Assembly: GCF_028368975.1 (NCBI RefSeq)
Contig: NZ_JAQNDM010000002.1
Span: forward strand, 3,186,425-3,218,424
Reading direction: 5' to 3'
DNA from: Stigmatella ashevillensis
GTDB taxonomy: Bacteria; Myxococcota; Myxococcia; Myxococcales; Myxococcaceae
DNA: 32,000 nucleotides
Each line of letters begins with the position of its first letter. Within the stretch, counting starts at the first letter, position 1. The position numbers were made by a program, and so were the translations under genes. Shown here in pieces: positions 1 to 14,295 of this stretch. Below the pieces are notes generated by a model. That model had not been told where the DNA came from and did not search any database. It saw nothing but the letters and a program-made list of their open reading frames with translations.

Positions 1-315
1 CTCGGAGACGGTCTTGATGGTGTCCACCGCCTTGAGCACCTGCTCGCTGCCCTTGGTCTGCTCCTTCTGGGCCCGGTTCAGGTGGGTGACCATCTCGTTG
101 ATGCTCTCGATGGAGCGGGTGATCTGCTTGCTGCCCTGCGTCTGCTCCTGGCTGCTGCGCTGCACGTGCGCGGTGATGACCTTCATCCGCTCGGCGCTCT
201 TGATGATCTGCTCACTGCCCTTGGCCTGCTCGTTGGAGGCCTTGGAGATCATCTGCACCGTCTCCGAGATGCGCTGGATGGCCGTCGTCACCTGACGGCT
301 GCCGCGGGCCTGCTC
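1..315 (-). repeat. In-frame 84-nt (28-aa, four-heptad) tandem repeats in the C-terminal arm of the MCP, each opening with EQxxGSxQ
   Basis: Translated units: EQARGSRQVTTAIQRISETVQMISKASN / EQAKGSEQIIKSAERMKVITAHVQRSSQ / EQTQGSKQITRSIESINEMVTHLNRAQK / EQTKGSEQVLKAVDTIKTVSE (cut by the window edge). Unit boundaries fall at nt 315, 231, 147 and 63. Confidence 0.7.
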
Positions 316-5646: not shown

Positions 5647-5702
5647 CGTGCGGAGCCCGCTGACCCAGCGTGCAGGACAGACTCGGTGCCCAGGGGAAAC
5701 AG

Positions 5703-6464
5703 ATGGCGGAGATGCACTATAGAACGGCGTTGGTCACAGGGGCCTCGAGTGGGCTAGGACGCGGCCTGGCCCTGTGGCTCGCTCGGCGCGGCACGCGCGT
5801 GTTCGCCGCGGCCCGGCGGCAGGAACCCCTCCAGGCCCTGGCCCAGGAGGCCCAGGCAGCGGGCGCCACGCTGGAGCCCCTGGACATGGACGTGGCCCGG
5901 GCGGAGGAGACCGTCGCCCGCATCCGCCAGCTCGACGCGGACTGTGGGGGGCTGGACCTGGTGATTGCTAACGCCGGCGTGGGCGGAGAGACCTCCGGCA
6001 AGCGCTTCCCCTGGGAGCGCACGAAACAGATGATCGACATCAACGTCACCGGCGCGGCGGCCACCCTGAGCGCCGTGCTTCCCCAGATGGTGGAGCGCGG
6101 CCGAGGGCACCTGGTGGGCGTGTCCAGCCTGGCGGCGTTCCGGGGCATGCCCACCCATGCCGCCTATTCCGCCTCGAAGATCTTCCTCTCCACTTTCCTG
6201 GAGAGCCTGCGCGTGGACCTGCGCAACACGGGCGTGCGCGTCACCTGTATCTACCCCGGCTTCGTCAAGAGCGAGATGACAGCGAACAACCGCTTCCCCA
6301 TGCCCTTCCTGCTGGAAACAGAGGATGCGGTGGAGCGCATGGGCCGCGCCATCGTGCGCGGAGCGCCCGTGTTCGCCTTCCCCTGGCCGACCGCGCGGTT
6401 CGCGCAGTTGGTCCACTCGCTGCCCGACGCCCTCTTCGATTCCCTGGCGGGCCGACTCCTCTGA
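5703..6464 (+). CDS. Short-chain dehydrogenase/reductase (classical SDR)
   Basis: TGASSGLG cofactor motif, NAG, and catalytic YSASK. Start at ATG 5703 (MAEMHYRTALVTGASSGLG); the track ORF opens 33 nt earlier. Confidence 0.9.
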   Translation: MAEMHYRTALVTGASSGLGRGLALWLARRGTRVFAAARRQEPLQALAQEAQAAGATLEPLDMDVARAEETVARIRQLDADCGGLDLVIANAGVGGETSGKRFPWERTKQMIDINVTGAAATLSAVLPQMVERGRGHLVGVSSLAAFRGMPTHAAYSASKIFLSTFLESLRVDLRNTGVRVTCIYPGFVKSEMTANNRFPMPFLLETEDAVERMGRAIVRGAPVFAFPWPTARFAQLVHSLPDALFDSLAGRLL

Positions 6465-6494
6465 GACAGGGTTCGCGAAGCACTCTGGGTCTTG

Positions 6495-7022
6495 CTACCG
6501 GACAAACACGGGCGCGAACAGGCTGACGGAGTACGGCACCGCTGCCGCGCCCCCCGCTCGAACCCGGACGAAGAACCCGTTTTGGGACTCGGCCCGAAGC
6601 AGGCGTATCTCGCCCGGTTGGCGTTGGACGATGTCTCCAGGTGCGCTCAACGGGATCGGTTGGCCACTGGCATCCACGAGCTCCACCTCCAGTGGACCCC
6701 GCGAGGCCTCCCAGCGCACGGTCGCACCCGCCGGGTGACAGCAGTCCACCCAGGCCTGAATCCAGTCCGCATCGCCAGGGCACGCCACCCTTCCCTCCTG
6801 CACCAAGGGCCCGTGGTTGTAGATGTGGGAGAGAGGAGGGGTCGCCAACCCTTGCTCCAGCGTGTCGTCGTCCTCCCACGCATCATCCGCACACGGGGAC
6901 TCGTTCTCAGTCTGAGCTTGGCTTCCACTCGGGGGGCCGCCTTCTCCCCCATGGGCACGGCACGCTCCCACCCCACTCAGTGTCACCAGCATCAGCGCGA
7001 GGCATGGAAATCTCATGGCCAT
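6495..7022 (-). CDS. Secreted protein or probable lipoprotein with a pre-peptidase C-terminal (PPC)-like domain
   Basis: Signal peptide MAMRFPCLALMLVTLSGVGAC. The body follows the PPC pattern: DAWEDDDTLEQGLA, CPGDADWIQAWV, LEVELVDASGQPI, GFFVRVRA...VPYSVSL. Starts 6 nt after the kinase stop, so it is probably co-transcribed. Confidence 0.6.
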   Translation of the reverse strand: MAMRFPCLALMLVTLSGVGACRAHGGEGGPPSGSQAQTENESPCADDAWEDDDTLEQGLATPPLSHIYNHGPLVQEGRVACPGDADWIQAWVDCCHPAGATVRWEASRGPLEVELVDASGQPIPLSAPGDIVQRQPGEIRLLRAESQNGFFVRVRAGGAAAVPYSVSLFAPVFVR

Positions 7023-7028
7023 GAAGGT

Positions 7029-8435
7029 TCAGGGATACTCGGAGGTTCCTAAAGGGACCGGTGCGAGCACCGGGTAATAGCAAGCGCCCCGCCACTCGTA
7101 GTTTCCTTCTGCACAGGGAGGTGTGGCTTCCCGGGGTACCCCCCAGCAGCCCCCATTGAGTTCTATTTCACGCTTCCTGCATGGAGGCCTTAACTGTCCC
7201 GGTAGATGCTTTTTTGGAACGTCGAGACCGATGCGCTCCGAACCAGATTCCGGGGCTTGCACGGACTCACCCGAAGGGAGCGCATCCTTCGCGAGCCCGG
7301 CGGTCCCCGCGTCTGCCTCGGCCGCGTCTCGGCCGAGGGAATGGACGCCTTCCGCACGCCAGGGCCTCGGCTGCTGCCATAGGTTCCAGGCTCCCTGAAG
7401 CACCAGAGAGGCGGCGAGCCCAGCCACAGCCCCCAACCACGCTCCTCTGAGATGGGAAGGGGGAGAAGGGTTGGGCCGACGAGCCCGTAGAGCAACCGCT
7501 GGCCTCAGACGATGGGTGATGGGCTGATCCGCCTCCGGGCCCGCGGACTCCGCCGCCTGTTCGAGCGCACGGGCCACCTGCGCCGCGCTGCCTCGGGCTG
7601 AGGGCTTCTTCGCGAGCATCTGGCGGATGAGCCTTGCCAGTTCCGGACAGAGCGTCACCCATTCCTCGGGCGGAACCTGGACGGGAACGGAGACGGAAGC
7701 CTCTCCTCGAGAGGCCTTCAGCGTCACCTGGGCGGGGGGATAGACGCCCGCGACGAGGCGATAGGCTGTCACGCCCAGCGCGTAGACGTCGTCCGCCGGT
7801 CCAGGCGCATAGTGCGTGCTCCGCTCACGCCAGAATCGCCACTGGAACTGCACGGCCTCGGGACTGCGGTACGGAGAGGTTCCTGGAGGCAGCACCTCGT
7901 CCGTGAGCGGCGGCGCGCCGCGAAAACTGCCCGCACCGAAGTCGATCAGCACGGCGTGGGCATCCGCGGAACGGACGAGGAGATTGCCCCCCTTCACGTC
8001 CCGGTGCACGCCCTCCGCCTCGTGGGTCGCGGCCAGGGCGCGCGCGGCCTGGGCCAGCACTCGCAGCACAAGCCTGGACGTGAGGACACGTCCCTGGCCC
8101 CAGGCGTACAACGGGATGCCTTCCACCCAATCCATGACAATGAAGGGAATGGGGCCGGCCCGATGGGCCCATTGCCCGCGGTCTCGCAGGCCCGGCACGT
8201 TCGGCTGAGACAGGCGCGAGAGCAGCTCCGCCTCCCGCTCGAAGCGCGGATCCCTGGGATGGCGGGCCAGCTTCAACGCGAAGGGTCCGCTTCCCTCCTC
8301 ACCCCGCCGCTCGGCGCGGTAGACCACCCCATAGGTGCCGTACCCCTTCAGCTCCCCAATTCTCCAGGAGCCGATCTCCGTGCCCGGAGGAAGACAGGAC
8401 AGTTCCCGAGCCTGAGCGCTCCCATGCGTCGCCAC
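7029..8435 (-). CDS. Eukaryotic-like Ser/Thr protein kinase with one TM segment and a Cys-rich extracytoplasmic tail
   Basis: G-loop GYGTYGVVY, FALKL, catalytic HRDVKGGN, DFGAGSF, SPYRSPE. TM segment GAWLGAVAGLAASLVLQGAW. C-terminal PPCRKREIELNGGCWGVPREATPPCAEGNYEWRGACYYP has four Cys. GTG start. Confidence 0.9.
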   Translation of the reverse strand: MATHGSAQARELSCLPPGTEIGSWRIGELKGYGTYGVVYRAERRGEEGSGPFALKLARHPRDPRFEREAELLSRLSQPNVPGLRDRGQWAHRAGPIPFIVMDWVEGIPLYAWGQGRVLTSRLVLRVLAQAARALAATHEAEGVHRDVKGGNLLVRSADAHAVLIDFGAGSFRGAPPLTDEVLPPGTSPYRSPEAVQFQWRFWRERSTHYAPGPADDVYALGVTAYRLVAGVYPPAQVTLKASRGEASVSVPVQVPPEEWVTLCPELARLIRQMLAKKPSARGSAAQVARALEQAAESAGPEADQPITHRLRPAVALRARRPNPSPPSHLRGAWLGAVAGLAASLVLQGAWNLWQQPRPWRAEGVHSLGRDAAEADAGTAGLAKDALPSGESVQAPESGSERIGLDVPKKHLPGQLRPPCRKREIELNGGCWGVPREATPPCAEGNYEWRGACYYPVLAPVPLGTSEYP

Positions 8436-8536
8436 GTGAGGACTCTACCTCTGTCTGGCTGGCTGCCCTGCAAGGGGCCTTCAGAAAAAAGGTAAGGCCT
8501 GCTTGTGGAGGGGGCACAAGCGGTTATCTCGAAGAC

Positions 8537-8737
8537 ATGACTGGATTCCAGCCCCGATCCGAGGTGAGCGAGTACACGATTCCGGAAGGATGCCCGGGGT
8601 GCGGTGCCGACCTGCCCGTGCGTGTGTCCGAGAAGGGCGCCATGAGCGTGTGCACCCACTGCCACTGGATGGGACGGCCCGTATTGACCGTCACCCACCG
8701 GGGCCTGAGCGTGGAAGTGAAGGCCCTCCAGGCCTGA
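8537..8737 (+). CDS. Small zinc-ribbon-like protein (66 aa), function unknown
   Basis: CPGC...(20 aa)...CTHC forms a four-Cys knuckle pair. Third-position G+C is about 83% by hand count, consistent with coding. No homolog recognised. Confidence 0.5.
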   Translation: MTGFQPRSEVSEYTIPEGCPGCGADLPVRVSEKGAMSVCTHCHWMGRPVLTVTHRGLSVEVKALQA

Positions 8738-8763
8738 TAAGCGCCCAGCCCGCCGATGGCCGC

Positions 8764-9225
8764 TTAGTCCACCGGGCCGAAATGGATTCGCGCAGAGGTG
8801 TGCCCATCCGCCGGGTCCAAGGCGAAACGGAGCCGCTCCAAGAAACCGGTGAAGCCCAGAATGTTCGGGCCCGGCCACGTCTTCAAGGCAAGGCACGTGG
8901 CGTCGACCGTGATGTCCTTTCCCTGGTCCGCGAGAAGCCGGATGGGAAGGCGATGGAGCGTGCCTGGAAACCGCCCGATCCGGGTCGACATGGTGATGGC
9001 TTCCAGCCCCTCGCCAAGTTCATCCCCCAGCAGTTCGATGTGCTCTGGGCCAATCAGGGTCCAGCGCGCCCCTGTATCCAGCATCGCGAGTTCGTCCGAT
9101 TGAGAGCCGAACCGGCAGCGCACGGCCACGCAAAGGGTCCCCGTCGGACGCGGCTGATCGAGAAAGACCTCGGCACTGCCGCTGCTCCAGGGACGGCTCC
9201 CCGAAGTATCTACCCAATGGAGCAC
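8764..9225 (-). CDS. Retropepsin-like (clan AA) aspartic protease domain protein
   Basis: AMLDTGARWTLI contains the D-T-G-A catalytic signature after a hydrophobic strand. The C-terminal ILGFTGFLERLRFALDP matches the usual (L/I)LG.dfL..f...D ending of single-lobe bacterial and archaeal retropepsin homologs. Last gene of a three-gene minus-strand module. Confidence 0.65.
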   Translation of the reverse strand: MLHWVDTSGSRPWSSGSAEVFLDQPRPTGTLCVAVRCRFGSQSDELAMLDTGARWTLIGPEHIELLGDELGEGLEAITMSTRIGRFPGTLHRLPIRLLADQGKDITVDATCLALKTWPGPNILGFTGFLERLRFALDPADGHTSARIHFGPVD

Positions 9226-9239
9226 CCCACCCCTCCTGC

Positions 9240-9875
9240 TCAGAGACGAACGAAGGTGATGCCCTCCAAGGCGTTGGCTTGCGCCAACCGCCGTTGCAGG
9301 ACCACTCGGCTCGGATCCTCATCTACCAGGGAGCCCTCCCGGAGTGCCACCCACTTGCCGACATGGTCTTCCGAGTTCTGGCGGAGCCATTCCGCATTGC
9401 GCGCAAACGGAGAGGCAGTGGCTTCATTCTCTGAATGGACAACCGGTGGCGCGAGCACTTGGGACCACCGCTCCAACGAGGGTGCAGGAGAGGCCTGAGC
9501 CAGAAGTCCCACGAGCTGTCGGGCCTCTGTGATGCGGCCGACCTCCACCAGTGAAGCCACAGGCCCCGCTACACCGCGCTCTTTGAGTGAAGCCAACTCG
9601 GCCTTGATGGCGGCATTCTCCTTTTCCAGCGCCGCGACACGGCCTTCCAGCTTCGTCCGAGGAGCCCCTGAGCGCGCATTTCGCCGCTCCTGCTGATCTC
9701 TGGAACGGCGCAATTTGAGCGCCATGTCCGCCGCGACCTGGGTTTCGGAACGGTTCATGGGCGGTGGAAAAGGGCTCTCTGGCACAAGGGTCTGAGCAAG
9801 CACCTTCTCCCAACTGACGGTCACCGCTTCGGTTTCGACCGGCGGGGCTTCAGGAAGATCCTCAGGCCGTCCCAT
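9240..9875 (-). CDS. Hypothetical protein: disordered Pro-rich N-terminus, leucine-zipper-like coiled coil, small C-terminal beta-rich module
   Basis: Coiled coil LEGRVAALEKENAAIKAELASLKERG. C-terminus is ...HVGKWVALREGSLVDEDPSRVVLQRRLAQANALEGITFVRL. ATG 9875 overlaps the upstream gene by 55 nt. An alternative GTG at 9824 gives a GTGA start/stop overlap with that gene, which is typical translational coupling. Confidence 0.6.
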   Translation of the reverse strand: MGRPEDLPEAPPVETEAVTVSWEKVLAQTLVPESPFPPPMNRSETQVAADMALKLRRSRDQQERRNARSGAPRTKLEGRVAALEKENAAIKAELASLKERGVAGPVASLVEVGRITEARQLVGLLAQASPAPSLERWSQVLAPPVVHSENEATASPFARNAEWLRQNSEDHVGKWVALREGSLVDEDPSRVVLQRRLAQANALEGITFVRL

Positions 9876-10561
9876 ATCGCGCCATCCACTTCATTCAAAA
9901 AGCGGGGAGTCCACTGGAGAGTATAGTTACCTCGGCCTTGAAGAACGAAGCTCTTCCCGGAAGGAGCTTTGCTCTGCTGGGAAATTTCTCTGACGCAACC
10001 ACTCGGCGGGTTGATCGTCCAGACAGAGGGATTCACATTGAGAATCTGCTCCCCTGCTACGACATGCTGTGCTCGCGCTGGGGCCAGTGTGAACCTTAAG
10101 TCCTCGCCCAGGATTAAGTAATTGGCCCTGATCTCCGCATCTACAGGGCGAGTGACAGGCCACAAGGCGCCAAGCCGATCCAGAACACTTGGGAAGCTGC
10201 CCACCGTCCGACTGCTCTCCACCATGACCTCTGGGGGCGAATCGTCCGGGCTACGACTCCAGCGAAAGTCCCAAGTCGCCGTCCCCGGCATGTCCTTGTC
10301 CCAAGCCACCAGTGTGGTCATGAAGGGGCGGAACTGCTCCAACCGCTCCGGGAGCGAAAAGAAGGCAGCGCGGCACCTCTGGCCGTCATCAAGGACTTCG
10401 AGATTCAGTTTGGCAAGAACCTCGTGCCAGTGGGCCAGTTCGGACTGGACCTGGAAACGAACGTGAAGTTTCGAGAGTCCCACGCCCCTGGTCCGGAAGA
10501 AGAAGACCTCGTCTGTGTGCGTGGCATCTTCGGGAAAGGACACCTGGGTTTCCGCGCTCAT
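9821..10561 (-). CDS. Hypothetical protein (246 aa), no recognisable domain; compositionally atypical
   Basis: Uninterrupted ORF with no signal peptide or TM. Uses host-rare codons (two TTA, plus ATA, AGA, AGT). Local G+C is 54% and 57% in two 100-nt hand counts (9901-10100), against 69% in the adjacent PBP1A gene. Confidence 0.6.
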   Translation of the reverse strand: MSAETQVSFPEDATHTDEVFFFRTRGVGLSKLHVRFQVQSELAHWHEVLAKLNLEVLDDGQRCRAAFFSLPERLEQFRPFMTTLVAWDKDMPGTATWDFRWSRSPDDSPPEVMVESSRTVGSFPSVLDRLGALWPVTRPVDAEIRANYLILGEDLRFTLAPARAQHVVAGEQILNVNPSVWTINPPSGCVREISQQSKAPSGKSFVLQGRGNYTLQWTPRFLNEVDGAIWDGLRIFLKPRRSKPKR

Positions 10562-10696
10562 CGGGCAGTGGGTTCCCAGCTTGCCTGTCTGTCTGCCCGG
10601 GCACCCAGCTCCACCATTATCCAGCTCCGGCGCAGGCTCAAGGCTTGAGTCCCAGAATGCCCACTGGGCTCAACGATTTCCGGAACAGGTTTGGCC

Positions 10697-13333
10697 CTAC
10701 TGCTGGCCCATCAGGAAGTCGTTGACGTTGACCTGTCCCTTCTCGGGAGTGGCCTCCTTCGGCTGGGTGCCCTTCTTGAAGAACATGAGTTCCATGTTCT
10801 TGGAGCTGTTGGAGGCAATCTTGCCCGTCTTCTCATCGATGGGCAGGCGCACCAATTCCATGGAAGGCCACGGGTAGAACTCCGGCTGGGGCCGGCCCGC
10901 GAGCGCCTTCTTCATGTAGTCCAGCCAGATGGGCAGCGCCGCGCGGCCACCGGTCTCGTACCGGTTGAGCGGGTGCGGGTTCAGGTCGTACCCCACCCAC
11001 GCCACCGTCACCAGATCCCTCGTGAAGGCGGAGAACCACGCATCGAACGAGTCGTTGGTGGTGCCCGTCTTGCCCGCGGCCGGCTTGCCCAGACGCGAGG
11101 CGGGCCCGCCCGTGCCCTCCTGCACCACGCCGCGCATCAGGTGCGTGATGATGAAGCCCGTCTCCGGCGACATGACCTGCTCGCCGGGCTCGAAGAGGCG
11201 CGCGTAGCCCGCCGCCACCCGGTCCTGCAAGGGGGCCCACGGGTCATCGAACGCGGTGTGGTCCTCCAGCGTGCGCCCGAACCGGTCTTCGATCTTCCGG
11301 ATGAAGTACGTGGGCTTCTTGCGGCCATAGCGGTTGAAGGTCGCGTAGACCTGCGCCAGGTCATACGGATAGACGCACGAGGAGCCGAGCGCCGCCGAGA
11401 AGTCCATGTTCATCGGCGTCGTCAGCCCGAGCAGCCGGGACCACTCGGACATCATCTTGGTCCCCACCGCCCCGAACGTCTTCACCGCCGGGATGTTCAT
11501 GGAGTTGACCAGCGCGGTGCGCAGCACCACGTCGCCCTGGAACTCCTCGGAGAAGTTCTCCGGCTTCCAGGAGACCTTGTTGTCCGGATCATGCTCGACG
11601 ATGGGCGAGTCCACGATGATGGTGGCCTCCGTCCAGTTGAGCTTCTCGATGGCCGCCGCGTACACCAGCGGCTTGAAGGCACTGCCCGGCTGGCGGCACG
11701 CCTGGAAGGCGCGGTTGAACTCGTTGTCGTCGAAGTCGTAGCCGCCCACCATGGCCGTCAGGTACTGCCGGTGGGGATCAATCGAGACGAGCGCGCTCTG
11801 GGGCTCGGGCTGCTGCTCCAGCCGGAAGAGCTTCGGGCCGTTCGGAATCCGCACCGGCTCCGCCGGGACAGCCGAGCCCTCCACGGGCTTCACCGTGTCA
11901 TCGGGAATCGTCTCGGCCAGCTTCTTGTCCCACTGCTCCTTGTCGTCCGTCAGGTCCCGCTTCGTCACGTGGCGGACGACCACCAAGTCCCCCTCGGCGA
12001 CGGCCCGCTTCACCGCGGAGATCATCCCGCCCGGTGCGTAGTAAGACTCCGGATTCACCTTGCGCGCCCAGCGCATGCCCAGCAACGGCAGCCGCGCCTT
12101 GTGCGGCCCCACCTGGATGTCGGCGCCCTTGCCGTCGTCGTCCAGCCGCGTCACCAGCCCCACGTAGAGCCGGTTCAGGACGAGTTCCTCGTTCCCCATG
12201 GCCTTCTTCGCGCGCGCGACGAAGTCGTCCCGCTCCTTGCCGGGGGGCAGGTTCCCGAGCGGGCCCCGCCAGCCCTGGCGCTTGTCCAGCGACAGCAGGC
12301 CTTCGAGCACCGCCTCCTGGGCCGCGCGCTGCCGCTCGCTGTCCATGGTGGTGAAGACCTTCAGCCCCTGCTCCAGGAGCACCGGGTTGCCGTAGCGGTC
12401 GACGATGTCGCGGCGCGCCTGCTCCACGAAGTACGGGGCGAACTCGTGGAACACGTCCTCCACGGGGTACACCTGGACGGGCTCGGCCTTGGCCTCGTCG
12501 TGCTCCGCCTTCGTGATCATCCCCTCATCGAGCATGCGGCGCAGCACGTAGGAGCGGCGGTTCTTGGCCGCCTCGGGCTTGAGGAAGGGCGAGTAGCGGC
12601 TGGGCGCCTGGGGCAGCCCGGCGATGAGGGTCATCTCTCCCAGTGTCAAATCCCGGACGTCCTTGCGGTAGTAGTTCTCCGCGGCGCTCTGCACCCCGTA
12701 GCTGTGGTGCCCCAGGAAGACGTTGTTGAGGTAGAGGTAGAGGATCTCCTCCTTCGTCAGCGCCGCCTCCAGGCGCCGGGCCAGGAGGGCCTCGCGAATC
12801 TTGCGCTTGAGCGTCTTGGCCGTGGCGTCCTTGTAGCCCTCGGCGCCGATCAGCACCGCCTTGGCGGTCTGCTGCGTCAGCGTGGAGCCGCCCTGCATAC
12901 CGCCGCTGCGCAGGCCCAGCTTGGAGGTAATCGTCTTGAAGCCGGCGCGGGCCGTTCCCAGGATGTCCACGCCCATGTGGTCGAAGAAGCTGGAGTCCTC
13001 GCTGGCGATGAACGCCTGCACCAGCCGCTTCGGGATGCGCTCGTAGGGCACCACCTTGCGCCGCTGGTTGTAGAACTCCCCGGCCAGCACCGCATCGTCG
13101 GTGTAGACCTCGGTGACGATGGGCGGCCAGTACTGGTCCACCTTCGGGATGGCGGGCAGCCCGGGGGAGTAGATGTAGTACAGCGCCACCAAGCCCACCG
13201 CGCCCGCGGTGGCGCCCGTGAAGGCCAACCACCCCGCGAGCTTGAGGGGAAAGAGCCACCAGCGGCCCTTTTTCACCCCGTCGAGAACGAGCTTGGAGCG
13301 GCTGCGATCGATGTTCGAGTTGGAAGTGCTCAT
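10697..13333 (-). CDS. mrcA: Penicillin-binding protein 1A (class A bifunctional transglycosylase/transpeptidase)
   Basis: GT51 motifs EDSSFFDHMGVD, GGSTLTQQ and RKIREALLARRLE. Transpeptidase motifs SAFKP (SxxK), SMN (SxN) and KTGTT. Start at ATG 13333 (MSTSNSNIDRS...) forms an ATGA overlap with the stop of the upstream pseudouridine synthase gene. Confidence 0.95.
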   Translation of the reverse strand: MSTSNSNIDRSRSKLVLDGVKKGRWWLFPLKLAGWLAFTGATAGAVGLVALYYIYSPGLPAIPKVDQYWPPIVTEVYTDDAVLAGEFYNQRRKVVPYERIPKRLVQAFIASEDSSFFDHMGVDILGTARAGFKTITSKLGLRSGGMQGGSTLTQQTAKAVLIGAEGYKDATAKTLKRKIREALLARRLEAALTKEEILYLYLNNVFLGHHSYGVQSAAENYYRKDVRDLTLGEMTLIAGLPQAPSRYSPFLKPEAAKNRRSYVLRRMLDEGMITKAEHDEAKAEPVQVYPVEDVFHEFAPYFVEQARRDIVDRYGNPVLLEQGLKVFTTMDSERQRAAQEAVLEGLLSLDKRQGWRGPLGNLPPGKERDDFVARAKKAMGNEELVLNRLYVGLVTRLDDDGKGADIQVGPHKARLPLLGMRWARKVNPESYYAPGGMISAVKRAVAEGDLVVVRHVTKRDLTDDKEQWDKKLAETIPDDTVKPVEGSAVPAEPVRIPNGPKLFRLEQQPEPQSALVSIDPHRQYLTAMVGGYDFDDNEFNRAFQACRQPGSAFKPLVYAAAIEKLNWTEATIIVDSPIVEHDPDNKVSWKPENFSEEFQGDVVLRTALVNSMNIPAVKTFGAVGTKMMSEWSRLLGLTTPMNMDFSAALGSSCVYPYDLAQVYATFNRYGRKKPTYFIRKIEDRFGRTLEDHTAFDDPWAPLQDRVAAGYARLFEPGEQVMSPETGFIITHLMRGVVQEGTGGPASRLGKPAAGKTGTTNDSFDAWFSAFTRDLVTVAWVGYDLNPHPLNRYETGGRAALPIWLDYMKKALAGRPQPEFYPWPSMELVRLPIDEKTGKIASNSSKNMELMFFKKGTQPKEATPEKGQVNVNDFLMGQQ

Positions 13334-14295
13334 GAAGGTTCTAGCGCAGCGCGTTTGAGGGTGTCCTTCAGCTCTGGAGGCAACCTCGCCTCCACCGTCA
13401 CCTTCCCGCCGTGCTGGGGGTGCGGAAATTCGATGCGCTCCGCGTGCAGGAACAAACGCTTCAACCCCCACCGGGCCCGCACATCCCGGTTGAAGGCAAA
13501 GTCACCATACTTCCTGTCTCCAGCCACGGGGTGACCAACAGCGGCCAGATGCCTTCTTATCTGATGGGTGCGTCCTGTCTCGATGGAGCAGGAGAGGAGC
13601 GCCGCCTCGCTCGACTGGCGGATGACCTTCCACCGGGTGAGGGCCTCCTGCATGTTCACCCCCCGGCGGGCCTTGGACTCGGCGGTCTGCTGGTGCTCCG
13701 AGAGGGGAAGTTCGATGACCCCCGAGTCCTTGGGCATCTTGCCCTTGACCAGGGTGATGTAGCGCTTGCGGGCAAGGCCTTCCGTGAACACTTCGGTGAA
13801 GTGCACCATCGCCGGGCGGCGCTTGGCCACGAGGATGACGCCCGAGGTCTCCCGGTCCAGCCGGTGGGCAGGTGAGGCGGTGAAGTCGTTTCTCACCGCC
13901 TTGGGGCCCAGGTAGGCACGCACATAGTCCACCAGGGTTCCCCCGGTAATCCCGCTCCCGGTGTGCACGGCCATGCCGCTGGGCTTGTCCACGGCCATCA
14001 TCCAGTCGTCCTCCAGGAGGATGACCAGCTCGGAGGGGTCCACGGGGGGTGGGGGGGGAGGCAGGCGCTCGCCGCCCTGGGCCGGGCCGAGCAGTTGCTG
14101 CTCATCCCCCCGGATGGCGATGACGTCCCCGGCGACGAGCAGCTGCTCGGGCTGGGCCCGTTTTCCGTTCACCCGGACCTTCTTGACCCGGATCATCTTG
14201 AACAGATGACTGGTGGGCATGTTGGCCAGGCGTTTGCGGAGGTACTTGTCCAGCCGCATCCCCACACTGTCTTCTTCGATTCGGTACTCGATCAT
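13330..14295 (-). CDS. RluA-family 23S rRNA pseudouridine synthase (RluC/RluD-like, N-terminal S4 domain)
   Basis: S4-like MRLDKYLRKRL...VRVNGKRA and catalytic HRLDRETSGVILVAK. ATG 14295 is used here; an alternative GTG lies at 14322. Confidence 0.9.
   Translation of the reverse strand: MIEYRIEEDSVGMRLDKYLRKRLANMPTSHLFKMIRVKKVRVNGKRAQPEQLLVAGDVIAIRGDEQQLLGPAQGGERLPPPPPPVDPSELVILLEDDWMMAVDKPSGMAVHTGSGITGGTLVDYVRAYLGPKAVRNDFTASPAHRLDRETSGVILVAKRRPAMVHFTEVFTEGLARKRYITLVKGKMPKDSGVIELPLSEHQQTAESKARRGVNMQEALTRWKVIRQSSEAALLSCSIETGRTHQIRRHLAAVGHPVAGDRKYGDFAFNRDVRARWGLKRLFLHAERIEFPHPQHGGKVTVEARLPPELKDTLKRAALEPS

Follow-up and report, generated by a model that had tools for sequence, protein, structure and literature searches.

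What are three small genes of low G+C content doing between a Ser/Thr kinase gene and the gene for PBP1A in Stigmatella ashevillensis, and how did they get there? We analysed the 32,000-nucleotide (nt) stretch that contains them (NCBI RefSeq assembly GCF_028368975.1, contig NZ_JAQNDM010000002.1, positions 3,186,425 to 3,218,424 of the forward strand; the whole stretch is called the window below), following an earlier interpretation made from the letters alone (the sequence-only reading), which had proposed a horizontally acquired accessory module, possibly a protease-based toxin/antitoxin-like or defence-type system. The three genes, here called A, B and C from the upstream end, form a compact foreign island. 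C is predicted to be a retropepsin-like aspartic protease, B its constant partner, and A an additional component that joins the pair in some lineages only. We tentatively read A-B-C as a protease-based toxin-antitoxin (TA) or abortive-defence-type module in the broad sense, an interpretation that we regard as plausible, though slightly short of probable.

The origin of the block is the clearer part of the answer. A, B and C were not found in any of 40 relatives, which include 10 same-genus genomes that are 92–100% complete. On the PBP1A side, DNA homology sets in at the stop codon of that gene (~10697) in all same-genus comparisons; in the closest relative sharing the kinase (G007), homology ends at window position 8746 and returns at 10697, with an oxidoreductase gene standing in place of A-B-C. 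Elsewhere in the genus, the SDR gene almost abuts PBP1A (G010 and G002), or the slot is filled by an MFS transporter and a GH16-like gene (G001 and G006; identities by reading of the sequences). The interval between SDR and PBP1A is an integration hotspot whose cargo differs between species, and A-B-C is one island within it (Table 1).

The composition of the block is similarly atypical for the genome. G+C drops to 0.56 at positions 9750–10199, compared with 0.66–0.71 in the neighbours, and the island as a whole (62.0%) lies at the 6th percentile of 1950-nt windows of the genome (67.0 ± 3.0%). G+C at third codon positions (GC3) was 0.70, 0.67 and 0.77 for A, B and C against ~0.88, and the codon adaptation index (CAI) was 0.42, 0.44 and 0.55 against 0.72 ± 0.07; the CAI reference consisted of long open reading frames (ORFs) pre-filtered at GC3 > 0.8, and percentiles are approximate. 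A alone carries two TTA, one ATA and one AGA codon, all rare in the host. The window contains no tRNA gene, and the island borders showed neither meaningful direct repeats nor a target duplication, nor an integrase gene, although no search aimed at the latter was made. The low G+C of the upstream end, the host-rare codons of the first gene and the unmarked borders had all been described in the sequence-only reading, and each was recovered here. Because the genes were not found in 40 relatives, the same-genus slot is empty or refilled, and the composition is atypical, horizontal acquisition of A-B-C, as had been proposed, is strongly supported. For the C family, 3 of 301 sampled Myxococcota genomes were positive, and for the A family, 4 of 401; both figures are lower bounds, since only a few first-look candidates were scored per genome.

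The six-frame ORF list returned the three tightly packed minus-strand frames at the positions first given for them, together with both forms of the A/B overlap and the 14-nt gap between B and C. The overlap measures 55 nt from the ATG of B, or 4 nt (GTGA) from an alternative GTG. The ATG is the sole start kept across 17/17 full-length homologues, and codon 18 of B, the alternative GTG, reads CTG in locus L004; the long form of B was adopted for these two reasons. The B-C spacer contains an AGGAGG Shine-Dalgarno sequence 8 nt before the GTG start of C. Furthermore, the proteins of the window and of three related loci (L004, L005 and L006) are 58–85% identical, at a dS of 0.5–1.1, and dN/dS was 0.23–0.31 for A, 0.20–0.32 for B and 0.10–0.13 for C. 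All three genes are under purifying selection.

Table 1 Coordinates of the features discussed (window positions unless a residue range or another locus is named).
Feature	Position	Strand	Description
Gene A	9821-10561	minus	246 amino acids (aa); apparent founder of an unnamed family; putative accessory or sensor component
Gene B	9240-9875	minus	211 aa; coiled coil and probable C-terminal divergent DUF5678 domain
Gene C	8764-9225	minus	153 aa; predicted retropepsin-like (clan AA) aspartic protease
Inserted island	8747-10696	minus	genes A, B, C and upstream region; 1.95 kb
Leader	10562-10657	minus	~96 nt upstream of A; conserved, non-coding; putative promoter/operator
Palindrome	10637-10649		6-1-6, CTCAAG-n-CTTGAG; candidate operator just upstream of AGCTGGATAATGGTGG
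B, N-terminal peptide			conserved
B, basic stretch	residues ~54-70
B, coiled coil	residues ~74-103		heptad pattern
B, hairpin	residues ~105-140		TPR-like
B, linker	residues ~141-146		LAPPxV
B, C-terminal domain	residues ~160-211		probable divergent DUF5678
Integration hotspot	6465-10696		SDR-PBP1A interval
SDR gene	5670-6464
Lipoprotein gene	6495-7022
Ser/Thr kinase gene	7029-8435		Pkinase, E 6e-25
Zinc-ribbon ORF	8537-8737		66 aa, four Cys
PBP1A gene	10697-13471	minus	same strand as A-B-C; stop codon at 10697
A with another pair, locus L123	4001-5801
A with another pair, locus L128	1067-2861
Toxin/immunity-like neighbourhood of A-B-C, locus L006	1246-2804		metagenomic contig
Split C homologue, locus L032	7883-8318		216-kb contig

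The AlphaFold2 (AF2) model of C (pLDDT 91.6) returned 151 PDB matches at E ≤ 1e-3 in Foldseek, all of them retropepsins, headed by Rickettsia APRc (5c9f; probability 1.0, TMt 0.63) and followed by the proteases of the human (HIV) and feline (FIV) immunodeficiency viruses; similarly, all PDB matches of the C family profile were proteases of retroviruses or of DDI1. The catalytic motif of window C is D50-T-G-A, with the D invariant in 76/76 family members, T or S at the second position in 72/76 and G at the third in 64/76 (A in the remainder). An invariant signature, L-E-R-x-R-F-A-x-D-P, follows the psi-psi-Gly motif, and a beta extension of ~35 aa precedes the fold at the N-terminus; reading of the sequence revealed no signal peptide or transmembrane segment, and we take C to be cytoplasmic. 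Window C itself remained below the Pfam cutoffs (E 0.1–0.2; 13.1–13.7 bits against cutoffs of 24.3 and 28.2), whereas 45 of the 76 relatives matched PF13650 (Asp_protease_2) and 19 of the 76 matched TIGR02281 at E ≤ 0.01, and the counterpart in G305, a genome of the same family as Stigmatella, scored above the Asp_protease_2 cutoff. Of the profiles first suggested for the three proteins, PF13650 was thus reached through relatives and TIGR03698 never appeared. Judged by modelled fold and invariant Asp, C is very probably the retropepsin-like protease that the third gene had been taken for, with family membership reached through its relatives and not through its own Pfam score. Clan AA enzymes with one DTG lobe must dimerise to be active; C has a single DTG lobe, and its predicted activity would therefore require a homodimer.

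Searched with the B and C family profiles, the genome yielded no further copy of either gene. One other Asp_protease_2 domain (G000:C1:4455681-4455959), within an open frame of 566 aa, passes the Pfam cutoff; the lack of a second match to the two family profiles shows it to be unrelated to the B-C pair. In locus L032, a C homologue is split across two frames near residue 45, by a frameshift or an assembly error.

B combines several elements in the order given in Table 1. Its first 22 residues are conserved and partly constrained by the overlap with A, and give way to a variable stretch. The basic stretch carries conserved arginines (R57, R65, R68 and R79), and indels in the coiled coil among homologues are multiples of 7 residues, so that the heptad register is preserved. 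The C-terminal half consists of the TPR-like hairpin, L-A-P-P-x-V with a linker of ~15 residues, and a domain of the pattern W..N...YRG.WVAL..G.LL.; in B-type proteins across phyla, the linker motif is kept at L in 72/83, at the first P in 69/83 and at the second in 63/83. Against the Pfam model of DUF5678 (PF18929), window B gave no match even at E ≤ 10, and against its own family profile it gave E 1e-26; of the relatives carrying the same module, 51/83 matched DUF5678 at E ≤ 0.01 (best 1e-9), and those of L044, L071 and G305 scored above the cutoff over the whole model. By this transitive route, the end of B is probably a divergent DUF5678 domain. The sequence-only reading had pointed to DUF5678-type modules beside retropepsin-like genes, and this lead proved right when followed through the relatives of B and of C.

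The N-terminal parts of B-type proteins vary strongly in length and content and the C-terminal module is constant; many are short proteins in which hardly anything precedes the module (median ~78 residues). No canonical DUF5678 was found in the Stigmatella genome or in the control genomes, and no solved structure of DUF5678 was detectable by sequence. Profile searches of solved structures with A and B returned only coiled-coil and TPR noise and an insignificant agglutinin match. Membership of B in the bZIP family is not supported: Pfam bZIP_1 reached 18 bits against a cutoff of 27.6 (E 0.003) over the zipper part only, PDB bZIP matches lay at E 0.1–0.5, and coiled coils give biased scores; the likeness in layout is an analogy only.

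B and C belong together. A C-family scan of named genomes yielded 79 loci in Myxococcota (including Sorangium cellulosum So0157-2), Acidobacteriota, Chloroflexota, Cyanobacteria, Desulfobacterota, Proteobacteria and others, and a B-module ORF stood immediately upstream of C on the same strand in 77 of them. In view of this arrangement, B and C form an obligate pair of ancient origin; A represents a distinct family, which accompanies the pair in some lineages only. The sequence-only reading had treated the three genes as equal parts, which these neighbourhoods do not bear out. Tandem duplicated B-C pairs occur in five loci, and a copy in a cyanobacterium has MNT/HepT, DUF5615 and DUF2283 genes as neighbours.

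The pair resembles the DUF5678-retropepsin pairs (PF13650, PF13975 or TIGR02281), which comprise the same two families, place the partner upstream of the protease and are tightly coupled, mobile and patchy in distribution. The window form differs from these in that B is much longer (211 aa), with its TPR-like hairpin, LAPPxV motif, coiled coil and basic stretch and a DUF5678 domain that Pfam misses, in that C has the N-terminal beta extension and the LERxRFAxDP signature, and in that a third gene leads the operon and a leader with a palindrome accompanies it. Proteases of the HIV-protease fold have barely been studied in bacteria, and the DUF5678-retropepsin pair, found in at least six phyla, is among the more widespread two-gene cassettes without an assigned function. 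To this the window adds the three-gene form and its A family, the genes of TIGR04255 and of a 220-aa family that occupy the equivalent position elsewhere (described below), an extended B and a conserved leader.

We found no match for A in Pfam, NCBIfam, PADLOC or PHROGs. Its AF2 model (pLDDT 70, pTM 0.71) has two similar halves, each a beta-sheet plus helix, and fold searches of the PDB and BFVD returned no neighbour (TM ≤ 0.41). Among 1.84 billion representatives searched exhaustively with HMMER, 116 clusters reached E ≤ 1e-3; most are of 220–250 aa and match over their full length. A thus appears, as far as its model and these searches reach, to found a new protein family without a detectable fold relative.

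The contexts of A bear on what it might contribute. The triplet that it leads recurs in other myxobacteria and in metagenomes. In the close relatives L004, L005 and L006, A is followed by B and C in the same order and with the same 55-nt A/B overlap at unrelated sites. In G305, it precedes, with a 58-nt overlap, a bona fide DUF5678 protein (41 bits) and the Asp_protease_2 protein mentioned above; in L130, a DUF5678 protein and then an Asp_protease_2 protein (a weak precomputed match); and in G233, a coiled-coil protein and then a D-S-G protein. Two further loci pair A with a different coiled-coil protein and a small helical protein; the neighbours are genes for an N6/N4 methyltransferase and a Tn7 TnsA-like protein in L123, and a gene that reads as an IS-type (insertion sequence) transposase in L128. 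No similarity was seen between these two pairs, nor between either of them and known structures. That A leads other downstream pairs in L123 and L128 suggests swappable effectors. A likeness of the helical proteins to HEPN domains was seen by eye only; no tool supported it.

Other families occupy the position of A elsewhere. TIGR04255-family genes ('sporadTIGR04255'; 240–280 aa) lie upstream of B in 9 loci (E 1e-29 to 6e-43) from Chloroflexota, Polyangiales and Calditrichota, and an unnamed 220-aa family does so in 12 loci; both are translationally coupled to B. Despite the shared position, A has no sequence or profile similarity to TIGR04255 (hhalign probability < 1%). Kinship between them was rejected on the lack of an NCBIfam match, an hhalign probability of 0.3% and a broadened A-family hidden Markov model (HMM) that found none; kinship with the 220-aa cluster was rejected on the lack of hhalign or HMM similarity. 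The hhalign alignments behind both comparisons were shallow (Neff ~2) and could miss fold-level kinship. A conserved gene of ~435 aa stands upstream of the TIGR04255-B-C triplet in three Anaerolineae loci of the Chloroflexota (L093, L094 and L101) and looks, by eye, like one portion of a larger ATPase-type gene of defence islands. In L006, A-B-C adjoins genes for a Cytotoxic-domain protein (PF09000, colicin-type) and for a DUF7683 protein, and this neighbourhood looks like a polymorphic-toxin/immunity locus.

Conservation among the four closely related loci extends upstream of A and ends with C downstream. The leader is 75–77% identical to those of L006 and L004, compared with 55–71% at the third codon positions of the genes, and DNA similarity among the loci ends at the stop codon of C. 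Within the leader, the block AGCTGGATAATGGTGG, which reads as −10-like, is invariant in all four loci, and the palindrome beside it is exact in the window and in L006 and carries one arm mismatch in L004 and L005 (two of three distinct sequences exact). The palindrome occurs only 3 times in the 10.95-Mb genome. Judged from these alignments, the leader with its palindrome appears to travel with the module as a putative promoter/operator, at which a protein may bind.

Taken as a TA or abortive-defence-type module, the block would work as follows. C would be the effector, which, once freed, would cleave proteins of the cell or of an invader; B would be its dedicated partner, restraining C via the DUF5678 domain, with the LAPPxV linker possibly a pseudo-substrate or cleavage site for C. 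B would dimerise via its coiled coil and, by means of the adjacent basic stretch, might repress the operon at the palindrome. A would play an accessory part, perhaps in sensing or modulation. We adopt this interpretation, tentatively, because of the partner-then-enzyme order, the small sizes, the translational coupling, the patchy spread and the tandem copies, and because some copies lie among TA genes and the palindromic leader is conserved. The toxicity of C, its inhibition by B, the binding of B to DNA and a role for A are what we infer from this arrangement.

Compared with type II TA systems (e.g. Phd-Doc, or those with a ribbon-helix-helix (RHH) antitoxin), the likeness lies in the partner standing first and the enzyme second, in the coupling, the small proteins, the mobile and patchy distribution, the tandem copies and the candidate palindromic operator; the window module differs in its inverted charge and its third gene. 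We know of no TA toxin that is an aspartic protease, and if the interpretation holds, C would represent a new catalytic class of effector for such systems. The characterised bacterial retropepsin-like protease APRc (RC1339; Rickettsia conorii), which matches C best in structure, likewise has one DTG lobe and must dimerise. It sits in the membrane, processes itself, acts on autotransporters at the cell surface and is not known to have a DUF5678 partner; its identity to C is only ~20%, and C, as read above, has neither a signal peptide nor a membrane segment. In Sulfolobales, a protein with a retropepsin domain is listed close to type III systems in a paper on archaeal CRISPR (PMC3973734).

Several observations weigh against the TA or abortive-defence interpretation. 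PADLOC-DB v2 gave no match for A, B or C, and only 1–3 of 76 C relatives weakly matched PDC-M52B or PDC-M08B (E 9e-4 to 6e-3), a weak similarity to the B components of the phage-defence candidates PDC-M52 and PDC-M08 that does not amount to membership. The Stigmatella neighbourhood is not a defence island, and the cargo that relatives carry in the slot is metabolic. The charges (median +3 for the B module and −7 for C) are the reverse of those of classical TA systems. As to regulation, the palindrome is mismatched in L004 and L005 and absent from more distant triplets, a simple scan of the leader found no sigma-70 consensus promoter, PBP1A stands immediately upstream of the operon in the same orientation, which makes read-through transcription possible, and the resemblance of B to bZIP proteins is weak. 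Literature searches found no paper on DUF5678 or TIGR04255, and nothing relevant on bacterial retropepsins combined with toxin-antitoxin systems.

We weighed four other accounts, of which dedicated processing and strict anti-phage defence overlap with the interpretation above. For the first, which we consider unlikely, C would be a maturation protease and no toxin, acting only on B, and perhaps A, by cutting at LAPPxV, freeing the variable N-terminal part from the TPR/DUF5678 portion for a regulatory or structural job. Retropepsins typically cleave their own polyprotein partners, which fits, as do the strong conservation across phyla of LAPPxV between two domains of B and the combination of variable N-terminal parts with a constant C-terminal module, which would correspond to cargo and recognition module; however, the shortness of many B-type partners often leaves no cargo to release, and patchy mobile spread with tandem duplicates is more in keeping with a selfish module than with a pathway of normal physiology.

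Strict anti-phage defence is distinct from plain addiction of the TA kind in that A would sense infection, B would relay the signal and C would act as an abortive-infection protease. The effector swapping suggested for the A family is of the kind known from defence systems, a TIGR04255 or 220-aa gene takes the same coupled upstream position in other lineages, and DNA methyltransferase, TnsA-like and TA genes turn up in some of the contexts. PADLOC matches, however, are negligible for this subfamily and no defence genes were found in the Stigmatella neighbourhood, and we judge this account, too, improbable.

A further proposal is a tripartite protease-based abortive-defence system of an undescribed kind, in which A would sense the invader, B would both repress at the palindrome through its bZIP-like basic region and cage C through DUF5678 and a LAPPxV pseudo-substrate, and the released C dimer would cleave host or phage proteins, with the A family serving as a sensor cassette for different effector pairs. 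Taken in all its parts, this proposal is improbable. That the island is a decaying fragment of a phage or mobile element, made up of a scaffold-like coiled coil and a maturation protease without function for the present host, is very improbable: its foreign composition and a weak PHROG match of B to a head maturation protease family (E 0.007) point that way, but the match is insignificant and falls within the coiled coil, A, B and C are all intact with dN/dS of 0.10–0.32 indicating purifying selection, the same compact unit recurs with its leader at unrelated chromosomal sites without phage genes, and the borders show no repeats or tRNA and, with the limit given above, no integrase.

For experiments, the window provides several handles, namely a cultivable genus, sharp borders that can be compared with an empty site, a protease model of high confidence, a conserved linker that may be a site of cleavage or inhibition, the leader palindrome and the new 246-aa family of A, which seems to lead triplets whose downstream genes are exchangeable.

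Beside the island, the hotspot of S. ashevillensis holds further variable cargo at 6465–8746, consisting of the lipoprotein gene, the kinase gene and the zinc-ribbon ORF (Table 1). This cargo is present in G007 and absent from G010, G002 and G006, and G001 retains the zinc-ribbon region only. Its codon usage is atypical as well, with a CAI of 0.50–0.53 for the lipoprotein and kinase genes and of 0.50–0.64 when the zinc-ribbon ORF is included.

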